Source: a virus
Lineage: Duplodnaviria; Caudoviricetes
Direction: 5' to 3' (one strand)
IMG/VR virus record: IMGVR_UViG_3300025121_000013
Length of the DNA: 64,000 nt
Shown: positions 3,964-58,754 of the stretch, in pieces
Numbering within the stretch: the stretch's first letter is position 1
Layout of the letters: each line of letters begins with the position of its first letter
The notes under the pieces: generated by a model
Databases searched by the model: none
The model's input: the letters and a program-made list of their open reading frames with translations, nothing else
What the model was told of the DNA's origin: nothing
Translations under genes and position numbers: made by a program

Positions 3964-4021
3964 ATTAGCCTCCTTCTTTTGGGTTCAAAAAAAAAGAAAT
4001 GGATAAATATAGATCTCAAAT

Positions 4022-44667: not shown

Positions 44668-44709
44668 TTCGCCAATGGGGTCCGGTTAGACATAGACCCC
44701 ATTGGCGAA
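44668..44709. terminator. 15-bp perfect hairpin between convergent genes (bidirectional terminator candidate)
   Basis: TTCGCCAATGGGGTC / GACCCCATTGGCGAA. Confidence 0.75.
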
Positions 44710-44716
44710 AGATTTC

Positions 44717-45898
44717 TTAGTCAATAACCTCATACAAAAATGTCGTGCCTGCAATGAGTTTTCGGTTATTTGAAGTTGACTGAATAAATACCCTCCAATT
44801 TGATAGTTCAATATTTGGAAGTCTTTCAGTTATCCCTCCACTTGCCGTTTGAGGTTTAAGGCCTAAAATAAGTCGAGCTTCTTTTCCACCAAAAAATTCT
44901 CCTGTCCTTTTATCCATTAAAATGATTTCTTTGTATTGCTGTACTTTAACTGACTTTGAGAGTTCATAAAAACCTCTACCTTTTTGAAAAGGAATTCCTT
45001 GAGACGAAACAAACGTTTTTATATCAATGGTTGAATCGACAGGAATAACTTGAAATCTTCCTGAAGGAATAATTTCAAGACCTTCAGGGAGATTTTTAAA
45101 TTCTCCTGATTTTTTCGTTACCCTTCGAATATCTCTATATGATGTTCTTTTCGGTTTTTCAAAATATGGATCTTCATATTCAAAATCATACTCGGAATAA
45201 TCTTTTTCAATTGAAATTCCTCTGAGGGCATCAAATGATTTTTTAAGAGAAACTGTCATAAAACCTGATCTTTCAATTTCATCATTGAATTGATTTAATG
45301 AATTATTTTGATTATAACAGACTCCCATAATTAAATTCATAATGTCAGAAAATTGTTCAAGAGTTAAATAGAACCCTCCTGTTTTATTAGCAATTTCCAT
45401 ATAGAATGGTTTTGAGTGTCTTCGAATTCCTGGCATTGCATGAACCCCATAAACTTGAATTCCCATCTCTTTTAAAAGATCTAATTCTTTTCTCCAATCA
45501 ATTTTTTCAGTGTTCATATTATAATGTGGAGGGTGTGGAATATCATCTCCAATGATGACAATCAATTTTTTGCTTCCAGGAGTCCATGAAATTTCAGTTC
45601 TTGCCTGCCTTAGAACTTTTTCATAACATTCGGGACTGTCGCCCCCACCAGTTGGACCAATGTTCATAACAAAGTTTGTAATATTTGTCATATTGTTGCT
45701 CAGATTTAAAAATGTCGTAACATAGGTTCTATTTTTATCACAATAATCTCCATGGGCCAAGACTGAGATTCTTAAATTTGGTATGTCCTTAAAAAGTCTC
45801 TCAATACTTTGTTTAAGAACTCTTCGAACTTGTGATAGACAGGGATACATACTTCCTGTCGTATCAAAACTGAACAAAATCTCGATCAGATCGCTCAT
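44717..45898 (-). CDS. vWA (MIDAS) domain protein with an uncharacterised C-terminal domain
   Basis: FSFDTTGSM (DxTxS), GGGD.PE.Y, IGDD.PH. Confidence 0.85.
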   Translation of the reverse strand: MSDLIEILFSFDTTGSMYPCLSQVRRVLKQSIERLFKDIPNLRISVLAHGDYCDKNRTYVTTFLNLSNNMTNITNFVMNIGPTGGGDSPECYEKVLRQARTEISWTPGSKKLIVIIGDDIPHPPHYNMNTEKIDWRKELDLLKEMGIQVYGVHAMPGIRRHSKPFYMEIANKTGGFYLTLEQFSDIMNLIMGVCYNQNNSLNQFNDEIERSGFMTVSLKKSFDALRGISIEKDYSEYDFEYEDPYFEKPKRTSYRDIRRVTKKSGEFKNLPEGLEIIPSGRFQVIPVDSTIDIKTFVSSQGIPFQKGRGFYELSKSVKVQQYKEIILMDKRTGEFFGGKEARLILGLKPQTASGGITERLPNIELSNWRVFIQSTSNNRKLIAGTTFLYEVID

Positions 45899-45974
45899 GG
45901 GGTTTCCTCTGGTTCTTTTTTAGTAGTTTTTTAGAACATTTAGAATTAGATTTAAAAAAAATAAATTTTTGTGT

Positions 45975-46500
45975 TAGGGCCTGGAGCGGTGATGTGTGCA
46001 ATGCCTTCTTGCACGGTTTGGTGTTCCCGCTCCAGGCCCAACCCTTTTCTTTTTGGGCGGTGGGGTAGACCGATGCAACTCACTCGGATTTGTACCCCAC
46101 CGCCCAGGACCCTTTAGACGTCTAAAGAGCCCTTGGTGAAGGAAAGTTTTATGCGGTCTTATGGCAGAGGCCCATGTAAGTGAGTTTGCCGGCCAGCAAG
46201 GTGGTTCCCCCAAGATCTGTTAACTTGGGGGAACCCTTTCCTTCATTCTTTTAATGGGGGAAGGTTTGGATGTGGACTTACAGACTTTCCCCGTGAGGGT
46301 ATTCGCTGTCGCCTTAACATGAAGTCATCAAGATACAAGCGCCTTGACGCACTTCCCTTCCCCCATTTGCTTCGGCCGTTGGGCTCTTGGCAAGTCCAGC
46401 GGCTAATCCCAGGCTGAGGCCGTAGCCCGGGAAAAACCACACAAATTCTACTTCGCCTAATTCCTTCCGTGCCCTGCCGGCCTCCAGAAGGTTTCGGACA
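45975..46500. ncRNA. Putative large structured ncRNA A
   Basis: Perfect stems 45977-89/46027-39 (13 bp), 46054-67/46093-106 (14 bp), 46137-46/46236-45 (10 bp), 46203-14/46224-35 (12 bp), 46253-64/46356-67 (12 bp); 16-nt palindrome 46112-27; no credible CDS. Confidence 0.65.
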
Positions 46501-46510
46501 TGATAGAATT

Positions 46511-47404
46511 CTACTTCACGGCTTCCTTGATCTTGTCCTTGGCGAAGTCCTGGATCTCGTCGACGTACTTCGTTCCGCTGTCGACCGATCCATCCGCTTT
46601 GAACTTGAGGGTTTTTTCCTGAGCCGGGAAGTCAACCCAGGACTTGAAGGAAGGGGGGCCGCCGAACAGGCCGGAGAGGAGGGTTTTTTCCTCTCCGTAG
46701 ACCATGGGGCCAAACTCCGTTGTCCCAAGGGGAACCACGATTTCATTCCTGTTCTCAACTACCCACCAGGGCTTGCTGATGCCCTGGCTGATCATCCTCT
46801 TGATCAGCCAGGACATGGTTGTCTCGGGACCCAGGACCATGCCGGCAGAGGTGATTGGCGCAATCACTGCTCCCTCCACCAGATCCCGGTATATCGTCCA
46901 CGGGAAGACGACGCTGTCCTGGCCATTCTCCTTGGCCTGGAAAACGAGGCCCTTGAGGATATGGGGATTCTTCATCCCCTCCTCGTTGGTGATCACCTGC
47001 ATCCCATCGACCGTCACGAACCTGAAACCGAGGAACTCCGGATTCTTCACCTCAGCCCGGAGTTCCTCAACAACGTCCTTGGCGAGCTGGTTTTCGCCGG
47101 AGATCGCCTTCAAGGCCAGATACATGTCCTTGGCCCCGGTGAGGCTGTTTCCCACGGAGCTCGCCACGTCCTTCATGCCTTGGGAGCTGAAGCCCCCGAA
47201 GGCCGCGAAGAGAACGATCATTCCCAGGATCATGACCAGGGTGATCTTCATCGTCCGAAGGACCTTTGTGGTTGTTTTCTTGGCCACATGTTTCAGGTAT
47301 TCCTTCGCCTTCTTGTTCTCCGTACCCTTCTCTTCTCCGACTTGGCATCCATCTTCCATTGTGTCCTCGCTTTCATGTAACATTGTTTTGGGTGAATTAC
47401 ACAA
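46511..47404 (-). CDS. GC-rich membrane-anchored hypothetical protein
   Basis: One TM helix (ITLVMILGMIVLFAAFGG); G/C-ending codons produce shadow ORFs on the other strand. Confidence 0.7.
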   Translation of the reverse strand: MCNSPKTMLHESEDTMEDGCQVGEEKGTENKKAKEYLKHVAKKTTTKVLRTMKITLVMILGMIVLFAAFGGFSSQGMKDVASSVGNSLTGAKDMYLALKAISGENQLAKDVVEELRAEVKNPEFLGFRFVTVDGMQVITNEEGMKNPHILKGLVFQAKENGQDSVVFPWTIYRDLVEGAVIAPITSAGMVLGPETTMSWLIKRMISQGISKPWWVVENRNEIVVPLGTTEFGPMVYGEEKTLLSGLFGGPPSFKSWVDFPAQEKTLKFKADGSVDSGTKYVDEIQDFAKDKIKEAVK

Positions 47405-47443
47405 TGAACGCCATTCTTTATCTGGCGTTGGTAAATGAACTTC

Positions 47444-48303: not shown

Positions 48304-48339
48304 GGGGCCGGATTGATTTCCTAATACCAATCCGGCCCC
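48304..48339. promoter_or_regulatory. 12-bp intergenic hairpin (processing site or attenuator candidate)
   Basis: GGGGCCGGATTG / CAATCCGGCCCC between co-directional genes. Confidence 0.55.
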
Positions 48340-48852: not shown

Positions 48853-48866
48853 ATTAATATATATAG
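48853..48866 (-). promoter_or_regulatory. ATTAATATATATAG motif, copy 2
   Basis: Exact match; heads the minus-strand cassette 44717-48830. Confidence 0.6.
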
Positions 48867-51836: not shown

Positions 51837-51900
51837 TTTCATATCGACACCCATTATGAATAAGAACAAAATATAAATCATAATGGGTGTCGATATGAAA
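51837..51900 (+). promoter_or_regulatory. 23-bp perfect inverted repeat with the AAGAACAAA motif in its 18-nt loop
   Basis: TTTCATATCGACACCCATTATGA / TCATAATGGGTGTCGATATGAAA; abuts the AAGGAG SD of the HNH gene. Confidence 0.75.
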
Positions 51901-54694: not shown

Positions 54695-54743
54695 GACCTC
54701 AAGACAGGGATAAGGGAATTTCAAAAGTCCCTGTCTTGAGGTC
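54695..54743. terminator. 16-bp perfect hairpin between convergent units
   Basis: GACCTCAAGACAGGGA / TCCCTGTCTTGAGGTC. Confidence 0.75.
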
Positions 54744-56535: not shown

Positions 56536-57065
56536 TGGATGGGCCCCAAAGGCGGAATGACGGCGCCGGTTGGGGCCCATCCAGAATTACTAGGCAAAGG
56601 CCTGCGAGAGCAAAGGGGTTTCTCTCAGCTGCAGGCCTTTGCCTTTCTGCGGTGAAGCGATCTAAGTCTTCCAATCCACGAGAGCCCAGCGTCCCAGGTC
56701 TCTTGGTTTGGGATTGGATAGCCTTAGACCATCTTTCGCTTTTTCATGGCACGCCCTTTCAAAGTTGGGGTTGGTTTTCACTCCAGGTGCTCCGGACTTC
56801 TGGCGGTCAGTGAAAAGCTATCCGTGTTCTAAACAGGAAAAACCTCAACACGAGGTATTTCATCCTGTCTCCTTTCGATGATGGTTCATTCCAAGGTTTC
56901 CCAGAATTAAGTTTCCCTTGTCTAAATGAAACGTGGCTGGAGATCACAGGGCGTTGCCCAAGCGTAACGGATAAGAGGAAAGTCTAGATCTTCTTAACTA
57001 ACAGATCCGAAAATTCCTTAGTTCCGTTTCTAGTGACCCGCAGTTTTCCCTCATGCCCTTGAGGA
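56536..57065. ncRNA. Putative large structured ncRNA B downstream of rpsA
   Basis: Perfect stems 56536-49/56570-83 (14 bp) and 56592-605/56631-44 (14 bp); long irregular hairpin about 56652-56746; further stems TTTTCACT/AGTGAAAA, ACAGGA/TCCTGT, ACGGA/TCCGT. Confidence 0.65.
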
Positions 57066-57098
57066 CCACAAATTAACGATTATCAATATCCCCCATCT

Positions 57099-58754
57099 CT
57101 ACTTCGTTTCGCTTCTCTTCATGACAAAACGGGGCTTGTTGAACCCCGGCTTTCCCTTGGAAGTCGGCCCTCCTCCCTCCATCTTGTTGATGGAGAAGGC
57201 CATCTTCCGTTCCTCCTTGTTGATGGAGACCACTTTGGCCTCCACGGAAGATCCGACCGGGAACGAGCCGGCGAGGTTCTTCGTCAGGTCCTTGGGGATC
57301 TCGGAAACGTGGACCAGGCCTCGCAGTCCGCCCTCAAGGGAGAGGAACACGCCGTAGTCGGCGGTCCCGGTCACCGTGCCGCAGATCTTCGTTCCGACGG
57401 GGAACCTTTCCCCGACGGTATCCCAGGGATCGGGCTCCAGTTGCTTGACGCCCAGGGCAATCCGCCCTGAAGAGGGATCGATCCGGATGATCTTGGCCCG
57501 GATCGTTTCCCCGATGTGATAAAGCTCAGCGGGCGTCTTGATGTGCCCGGTCCAGGAGATGTCCGAGATGTGGACCATGCCGTCGATTCCCTCATCGATG
57601 CCGAGGAAGATCCCGAAGTCGGTCATGGCCTTGATCTTGGACTCGATGGTGGTGCCCACCGGGTACTTCTCGCTGACGCTCTCGATGGGGTCCTTCTTGA
57701 TGGCCTTCATGGACAGGGCCAGCTTTCTCTGGGCCGGGTCGATCTCGAGGACGATGGCCTCGATCTCCTGGCCGATCTCCACGACGCTTGCAGGGTTCTT
57801 CACCCTCTGGTGGCTGATTTCCGTGGTGTAAATCAGGCCACGGATCATGGGGGCCACCTCGACGAATATCCCGTATTCGGTCGTCGAGGTCACCAGGGCC
57901 CGGATCTTCGTGCCCTTCTTGAACTTCTCGGCGGCCTCGATCCAGGGATCCGGAAGGAGCCGCTTGATGCTCAGCTCGATCTTCTCTTCCTCGGCGTTGA
58001 CGTTGACGACCTTCACCTCGATGTTCTGGCCCACGGTGTACTCCTGGGTCAGATCCGTGATCTTTCCCCAGGAGACCTCCGAGATGTGGACGAGGCCATC
58101 TACACCTCCGAGGTCAAGGAACAGGCCGAACTTGGTGATGGCCTTGATGTCCCCCTTGACGACGGAGTCTGGAATGATCCGGGCAAAGGCTTCGGCCATG
58201 TTGGCCTCCCTCTCCTTCTCCAGGATCGCCCTCCTGGACACGATGACATTCCTCGTGTCCTCGTTGAAGGTGATGATCTTGAAGTTCATCGCCTTTCCCA
58301 GCACCTCTTCGGCCGAAACGGGGTGAAGGTCCACCTGGGAGCCGGGAAGGAAGGCGGGAACGCCGATGTCCACGGAGAAGCCGCCCTTGACCTGGTTTTT
58401 TACCAGGCCGAGGATATCGAGACCTCCCACGTAGGTTTCCTTGAGGCTTTCCCAGGTCACTCCCATGTTCTTTCCTATGGAGATCTGGACGGGCCGTCCA
58501 TCCTTCTCGAGGCCATCGAGAATGACTTCGATGAAGTCACCCTCCTTGACGGCCAGGCTTCCATCCTTGGTCGGAAGATCTCCGACCGGGATCAAGCCCA
58601 TGGTCATGCATCCCACGTCGACCATGGCGTTGATCTCGTTGATCTGGGTGATCACGCCGTCGACGACCGTGCCGATTTTGAAGATCTTCGGCTCGAAAAT
58701 CGACATGACGTTGTCTTGGGTGTATTCTGAATCTCGAACAGACGTCTTTTCCAT
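57099..58754 (-). CDS. rpsA: 30S ribosomal protein S1, six S1 domains, GC-rich
   Basis: VKGGFSVDIGVPAFLPGSQVD; FGLFLDLGGVDGLVHISEVSW; FGIF....GIDGMVHISDISW; LGVKQL..DPW; SD AAGGAG. Confidence 0.95.
   Translation of the reverse strand: MEKTSVRDSEYTQDNVMSIFEPKIFKIGTVVDGVITQINEINAMVDVGCMTMGLIPVGDLPTKDGSLAVKEGDFIEVILDGLEKDGRPVQISIGKNMGVTWESLKETYVGGLDILGLVKNQVKGGFSVDIGVPAFLPGSQVDLHPVSAEEVLGKAMNFKIITFNEDTRNVIVSRRAILEKEREANMAEAFARIIPDSVVKGDIKAITKFGLFLDLGGVDGLVHISEVSWGKITDLTQEYTVGQNIEVKVVNVNAEEEKIELSIKRLLPDPWIEAAEKFKKGTKIRALVTSTTEYGIFVEVAPMIRGLIYTTEISHQRVKNPASVVEIGQEIEAIVLEIDPAQRKLALSMKAIKKDPIESVSEKYPVGTTIESKIKAMTDFGIFLGIDEGIDGMVHISDISWTGHIKTPAELYHIGETIRAKIIRIDPSSGRIALGVKQLEPDPWDTVGERFPVGTKICGTVTGTADYGVFLSLEGGLRGLVHVSEIPKDLTKNLAGSFPVGSSVEAKVVSINKEERKMAFSINKMEGGGPTSKGKPGFNKPRFVMKRSETK

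Follow-up and report, generated by a model that had tools for sequence, protein, structure and literature searches.

A structured non-coding region behind a GC-rich orphan gene of an AT-rich giant groundwater phage, a candidate 3' trailer

GOLLD and ROOL are large non-coding RNAs (ncRNAs) of phages and prophages, about 0.5-0.8 kb in size and folded into multiple domains, that are typically found in tRNA neighbourhoods. To our knowledge, very few large ncRNA classes have come from huge phages. Structured elements also occur as stable hairpins between co-transcribed genes, and those of REP/BIME elements and T7 RNase III sites define 3' ends and block exonucleases. In T4-type phages, orphan cassettes recombine at small promoter/stem-loop units termed PeSLs, in which an early promoter adjoins a terminator stem-loop and which are repeated along variable regions (PMC2839356). 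The stem-loops that close known moron/PeSL cassettes act as terminators (PMC2839356).

Here we describe RNA A, a structured region of a very AT-rich giant groundwater phage, within a window that is the whole 64-kb stretch of DNA analysed. RNA A resembles GOLLD and ROOL in size class, phage setting and multi-domain non-coding fold, and the equivalent neighbourhood in some related phages has tRNA genes. Unlike GOLLD and ROOL, it matches neither covariance model, has no tRNA genes in its window, is contiguous with a co-directional gene without a promoter motif of its own, and is a singleton without covariation whose loops are large and tetraloops few. As in the moron and PeSL cassettes of T4-type phages, an orphan of foreign composition in a variable region is closed by stem-loops (PMC2839356); PeSLs, however, are short, repeated promoter-plus-stem-loop units, whereas RNA A is 536 nt long, unique and without an adjacent promoter motif. 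Its terminal domains, like 3' stabiliser hairpins, consist of a lower stem, an internal loop and an upper stem. REPs form repeated families, whereas nothing in RNA A is repeated within the window, and its predicted internal loops are larger than those of T7 sites.

A GC-rich gene with a structured non-coding tail

GC content is 24-33% nearly everywhere along the window (26% for the genome); two islands, about 46.0-47.4 kb and 57.0-59.5 kb along it, stand out as GC-rich. Gene content, judged from domain and PHROG matches, indicates a large phage: the window encodes a family B DNA polymerase with a fused uracil-DNA glycosylase domain, QueC and a six-domain ribosomal protein S1, and PHROG matches are numerous among its proteins. 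Groundwater and soil metagenomes have yielded assembled contigs, the longest of 274 kb, that encode the protein adjoining RNA A. With ARAGORN, neither tRNA nor tmRNA genes were detected in the 64 kb, and the cumulative GC-skew minimum falls near 25 kb, away from RNA A.

Features of the locus are collected in Table 1. GC at codon positions 1/2/3 is 0.53/0.36/0.77 in the orphan gene and 0.55/0.37/0.83 in the S1 gene; GC3 of ordinary genes of the phage is 0.22-0.30. The orphan gene is preceded by a good ribosome-binding site. An exhaustive HMMER search of 1.84 billion cluster representatives with its protein returned only the query itself, and no relatives were found in viral contigs or in a word-indexed set of 5.8 billion clusters. 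By language-model search the protein is nearest to Cache/PDC-type extracytoplasmic sensor domains (score 0.93, few shared features), a resemblance taken here as a lead only. GC-richness is unbroken from the orphan start codon at 47359 through RNA A and ends abruptly at 45975, and the first RNA A helix takes in the stop codon of the gene; thus, the unit is a GC-rich gene plus a GC-rich structured tail. A 7-bp hairpin (47405-47431) lies at the upstream border of the island, in the gap that separates the 141-aa gene, past its stop codon, from the ribosome-binding site of the orphan gene.

For the downstream vWA gene, no separate promoter could be recognised. The sole recurrent promoter-like motif near RNA A is the one at 48853, which is oriented for the minus strand; two recurrent promoter-like motifs were considered, and neither lies beside RNA A on either strand.

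Table 1. Coordinates of RNA A, its domains and repeats, and associated features in the window.
Feature	Position	Strand	Description
GC3-rich orphan gene P0001/P0003	46511..47359	minus	282 aa, N-terminal membrane helix; RNA A follows its stop codon
RNA A, whole structured non-coding trailer (candidate)	45975..46510	minus	536 nt, 52-53% GC; repeats, folding, no codon signal
Domain H1	46443..46511	minus	long minus-strand-specific hairpin; takes in stop codon of upstream gene
Domain H2	46399..46440	minus	minus-strand-specific hairpin, 6 + 9 bp, 3 G-U
Domain H3	46253..46367	minus	12-bp closing stem; 91-nt multibranch interior
Domain H4	46137..46245	minus	10-bp closing stem; inside, perfect 12-bp hairpin (46203-46235) and second arm
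Domain H5, palindromic hairpin	46103..46136	minus	12 pairs including 2 G-U; C-A mismatches break plus version
Domain H6	46054..46106	minus	perfect 14-bp stem; 25-nt interior with small inner hairpin
Domain H7 (terminal)	45977..46039	minus	perfect 13-bp stem around inner 6-7 bp hairpin
Perfect inverted repeat, 13 bp	45977-45989/46027-46039		
Perfect inverted repeat, 14 bp	46054-46067/46093-46106		
Imperfect palindrome, 17-nt arms	46103-46136		core 46112-46127 is a perfect 16-nt palindrome
Perfect inverted repeat, 10 bp	46137-46146/46236-46245		89 nt enclosed
Perfect inverted repeat, 12 bp	46203-46214/46224-46235		
Perfect inverted repeat, 12 bp	46253-46264/46356-46367		91 nt enclosed
Four minus-only helices	46133-46106, 46432-46407, 46349-46326, 46511-46443	minus	G-U pairs
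AT-rich spacer	45899..45974	minus	76 nt, with ribosome-binding site of next gene
AT-rich vWA-domain gene	44717..45898	minus	downstream of RNA A; conserved in related phages
Perfect 15-bp hairpin	44668..44709		end of minus-strand block at convergent gene junction
Recurrent 14-nt motif, candidate promoter	48853..48866	minus	head of minus-strand block; 4 exact copies in window
S1 gene	57099-58754	minus	GC3 0.83
S1 trailer, RNA B	56536-57098	minus	about 560 nt, GC-rich, non-coding

An earlier note on this DNA, made from the letters alone, had described a GC-rich stretch of nested pairing with at least five perfect stems of 10-14 bp, two of them long-range and enclosing multibranch domains, and a 16-nt palindrome. 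The stretch is real, and all of these elements appear in our repeat search and folds. Five perfect repeats of at least 10 bp are present, whereas 300 dinucleotide shuffles of these 536 nt contain 0.06 on average and at most one, and both long-range stems (46137/46236 and 46253/46356) enclose multibranch domains in the minimum free energy (MFE) folds of the plus and minus strands alike. About seven independently closing stem-loop domains are predicted side by side, five of which precede two terminal hairpin domains, and 67% of the MFE pairs have a probability >0.9. Hairpin loops are large and tetraloops scarce, with none capping a stem of more than 3 bp, unlike in ornate ribozyme-type RNAs. The contrast in GC between paired and unpaired positions is no different from that in shuffles, an uninformative result of the loop decay test.

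Domain H7 has A/T-rich runs on either side and resembles a terminator that works in both directions. Past its 13-bp stem, the U-rich run starts after about 11 nt on the minus strand and after about 5 nt on the plus strand, and a consensus terminator scan lists only weak sites. In a canonical intrinsic terminator the U tract comes directly after the GC-rich stem, and the distance of about 11 nt on the minus strand departs from that form. The contention that there is far more structure here than a terminator needs is supported, and the structure also far exceeds chance.

The arms of the stems at 46203-46235 and 46253-46367 have a common 8-nt core (TTCCCCCA / TGGGGGAA), so that the four arms could pair in alternative, mutually exclusive ways. 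The core is either a trace of hairpin duplication or possibly a conformational switch. Internal duplication of domains H3 and H4 was rejected, as the two do not align.

Strand, coding capacity and family membership

Folding energies favour the minus strand, which is the strand of both flanking genes. RNA A folds with z scores of -6.1 (plus) and -9.3 (minus) relative to shuffles, and with -10.9 when the exact 536 nt are taken on the minus strand. The MFE is -244 kcal/mol for minus versus -227 for plus, mean positional entropy 0.40 versus 0.60, mean base-pair distance 54 versus 72, and helices that depend on G-U pairs and are thereby strand-specific number 4 versus 1. Controls of equal length gave z scores of 0.0 for the AT-rich vWA gene, -3.9 for the adjacent GC-rich gene and -2.9 for the S1 gene. 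Thus GC-rich genes are somewhat "sticky", both GC3-rich coding sequences (46511-47359 and 57099-58754) folding better than their dinucleotide shuffles, and RNA A stands well apart from them. Perfect 12-bp hairpins also occur inside GC3-rich coding sequence, at 46783-46812 and 47030-47068.

The earlier note had placed the RNA on the plus strand, antisense to the flanking genes, on account of a GUGA (GNRA) loop and a UUCG loop. The letters are indeed present on that strand (46293-46296 and 46371-46374); however, the loops sit on stems of just 3 and 2 bp and are missing from the plus-strand MFE structure, and so are weak evidence of strand. Energy, z score, ensemble definition and the occurrence of G-U pairs where the other strand has C-A mismatches make the minus strand, sense to its neighbours, probably the correct one. 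This call rests on in silico energies and is no proof, since perfect Watson-Crick stems carry no strand information.

RNA A is non-coding. GC by codon position is flat across it, and codon-usage scores trained on the two GC-rich genes of the window are negative or near zero in every frame, versus +0.5 to +1.0 in the upstream gene. No RNA A open reading frame (ORF) of 42-79 aa has a Pfam match. A protein-coding region or pseudogene remnant was rejected on these three grounds.

In the frame of the upstream gene (minus strand, 46327-46513), four TAG stops come in succession, the gene's own stop codon and the three after it (46513, 46459, 46450, 46405), and this run of four is followed by a double TGA at 46330/46327. 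TAG makes up 1 of the 13 stops in the other two frames of the RNA A region and ends 8 of the 46 long ORFs in the window. Read-through of TAG to extend the upstream gene by 61 aa was rejected, as codon usage of the extension is not gene-like; recoding is not supported, although the in-frame TAG run remains peculiar. An exact 11-nt direct repeat (46444-46454 and 46507-46517) recurs in frame 63 nt apart, with TAG in each copy and the real stop codon of the upstream gene in one. A small duplication or recombination event where the gene ends may have left this repeat behind.

The inability of the earlier note to assign an RNA family was upheld. A scan of the whole window with Rfam 15, including the GOLLD, ROOL, OLE and HEARO models, gave no match at the gathering score, and at E values up to 10 there were six noise matches only, the best with 19 bits against a threshold of 90. 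A REP/BIME or MITE-type repeat was rejected, as no part of RNA A recurs in the other 63 kb of the window. A known mobile-element end, which the earlier note had named as evidence that would count against its reading, did not emerge: the island is not bordered by terminal inverted repeats or by a target-site duplication, and the proteins neighbouring RNA A contain no transposase, integrase or nuclease domain. We rejected an insertion sequence or other mobile-element end on both grounds, and a PeSL cassette because neither recurrent promoter-like motif occurs within or beside RNA A. As to moron features, composition differs from that of the neighbours and terminator-type hairpins are present; no promoter of its own was recognised.

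A similar layout at the S1 gene and the distribution of RNA A

The layout of GC-rich gene and tail occurs twice in the window. RNA B, like RNA A, lies on the minus strand after a GC3-rich gene, falls in the same size class and closes with a tandem pair of perfect hairpins of 13-14 bp: those of RNA B both have 14-bp stems and are 8 nt apart (56536-56583 and 56592-56644), and those of RNA A have 13- and 14-bp stems and are 14 nt apart. The two RNAs have no sequence similarity. RNA B as a whole is less structured on the minus strand, with z about -5.5 and a poorly defined ensemble (entropy 0.78 versus 0.40 for RNA A), and, unlike RNA A, it abuts a convergent gene. Long perfect stems with loops of 12-25 nt are found at other unit ends, at 44668-44709, 48304-48339 and 54695-54743. 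The two terminal domains of RNA A look like the normal end-of-unit punctuation of this phage, and its special feature is the five further domains packed before the terminal pair. The longest perfect hairpin of the window, formed by a 23-bp inverted repeat around 18 nt of loop, occupies 51837-51900, immediately ahead of a ribosome-binding site and start codon.

The orphan gene is carried by 21 public contigs. Two of these loci were compared with the window and match it at 100% identity, and four metagenome runs show no differences inside RNA A. No RNA run was among those listed for the sequence. RNA A DNA has no match in phage and plasmid collections and is absent from the two IMG/VR records with the vWA homologue. 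An exact 14-mer scan of viral contigs, itself poorly chosen, gave chance matches only, none of which aligned to RNA A. Viral contigs also yielded no relatives of P0002 or of the 406-aa neighbour. Homologues of the vWA protein occur at 41 loci with 32-63% identity, and these loci have no other neighbour in common with this phage and nothing like RNA A. Peaks of GC upstream of the vWA homologues correspond to tRNA genes or to coding sequence. About one in five related loci checked has tRNA genes no more than 1.5 kb upstream of the homologue (related contigs L126, L123, L125, L131, L133, L143 and L155). One tRNA gene of L126, at about 980-1055 nt on the upstream side of the vWA homologue (match start at 4001), carries a CUA anticodon and might encode an amber suppressor. 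In the sequences searched, RNA A appears to be confined to this phage, and since it is a singleton its status as a new RNA class is unproven.

Candidate roles of RNA A

We favour, tentatively and with somewhat less than even confidence, a reading of RNA A as the multi-domain 3' trailer of a GC-rich orphan cassette, forming and protecting the 3' end of its mRNA. RNA A would be transcribed on the minus strand within an accessory-gene block extending from near 48866 to the hairpin at 44709-44668 and would act in cis. Its terminal hairpins would define the 3' end of the cassette mRNA by termination or processing, and the fold would shield the message from 3'-to-5' exonucleases and from nucleases preferring AU-rich single strands. 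The predicted outcome is a long-lived, nuclease-resistant message among the AU-rich transcripts of the phage. A cis-acting mRNA trailer fits better than a free-standing antisense ncRNA because RNA A continues the GC-rich gene and ends in a hairpin of the unit-end type. Also pointing to a trailer are the in silico preference for the minus strand (MFE, z score, entropy and minus-only helices), the recurrence of the layout at the S1 gene together with long hairpins at other unit ends, and the position of the 48853 motif at the head of the minus-strand block, with no recurrent motif beside RNA A. Moreover, large loops match the unit-end hairpins of this phage better than they match ornate ribozyme-like RNAs. 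Against a trailer, 536 nt and about seven domains far exceed what termination or exonuclease protection needs, and the co-directional vWA gene starts 76 nt later without a recognised separate promoter. The gap of about 11 nt between the last hairpin and the U-rich run also counts against it. The perfect Watson-Crick pairing of the strong stems would equally fit a role at the DNA level, and the strand preference comes from predicted energies alone. The copies compared show no sequence variants and hence no covariation.

RNA A could instead represent a new class of large structured ncRNAs, either free-standing or derived from a 3' UTR, with a function comparable to that of GOLLD and ROOL. It would then work in trans while the phage infects its host, serving as a scaffold, decoy or multimeric particle. 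We consider this unlikely, though with a real chance of being right. Structured ncRNAs are classically found by looking for long GC-rich intergenic regions in AT-rich genomes, and RNA A is such a region; in this genome, however, coding genes can be GC-rich too, which deprives composition of diagnostic value. The extreme and well-defined fold (z -9 to -11, with two-thirds of the MFE pairs, 67%, above 0.9) and the two closed multibranch domains speak for an ncRNA, whereas the scarce tetraloops and large loops do not. tRNA genes near the vWA homologue in roughly one in five related loci recall the GOLLD/ROOL neighbourhood, but there are none in the window itself and no recurrent promoter-like motif adjoins RNA A. 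Absence of an Rfam match even at E 10, and of any homologue in the collections searched and thus of covariation, weighs further against this alternative.

Passenger DNA is an account that has some modest chance of being correct and is, on the whole, unlikely. The gene and its downstream flank would have been imported, moron-fashion, from a GC-rich donor, and the hairpins would be donor terminators or REP-like elements with little or no role in the phage. The island spans 1.39 kb with sharp composition boundaries on both sides, its GC3 of 0.77 and trailer GC of 0.52 would fit a donor of about 60% GC, and the gene is an accessory orphan in a variable-gene block, with the neighbours of the vWA gene conserved in 0 of 41 related loci. 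However, no donor lineage is visible, with no homologue among 1.84 billion representatives or 5.8 billion clusters and no DNA match in phage or plasmid collections. Five perfect stems in so strongly AT-biased a genome argue for selection or a very recent origin, and the arrangement of gene, trailer and two hairpins recurs at the S1 gene.

It is quite unlikely, in our judgement, that with RNA A we see the founding example of a class of structured RNAs in huge phages that are large (about 540 nt), multi-domain and trans-acting. Such an RNA would be freed from the 3' end of an early or accessory mRNA rich in GC, and might serve as a scaffold, as a decoy for host RNA-binding or RNA-degrading proteins, or as a self-assembling particle like those of GOLLD and ROOL.

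A DNA-level element, in which hairpins or cruciforms would serve recombination, replication priming or packaging or mark a mobile-element end, is very unlikely: the strong stems are all perfect Watson-Crick and fold on either strand, and T4-type phages shuffle orphan cassettes at PeSL units (PMC2839356), but no part of RNA A has a second copy in the 64-kb window, no transposase, integrase or nuclease gene is adjacent, the island has no terminal inverted repeats or target-site duplication around it, the GC-skew minimum is elsewhere (near 25 kb), and nested multibranch pairing with strand asymmetry suggests a single-stranded fold.

The non-coding tail is as GC-rich as the gene it follows, which argues against codon adaptation alone as an explanation of the GC islands of this phage. 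It points to a cause that acts on the whole nucleic acid segment, either as selection on the nucleic acid or as import of the segment. Were RNA A free-standing, the large ncRNA classes of huge phages would grow by one; were it the founding member of a class released from mRNA, GC-rich islands of gene plus trailer would be a dedicated format for nuclease-resistant RNAs in an AU-rich transcriptome. If, as we tentatively favour, RNA A is a cis-acting trailer that stabilises its message, the phage would follow an unusual strategy in which chosen genes and their 3' tails are kept GC-rich and tightly folding within a 26% GC genome, and these selected transcripts would perhaps outlast the rest of its transcripts.
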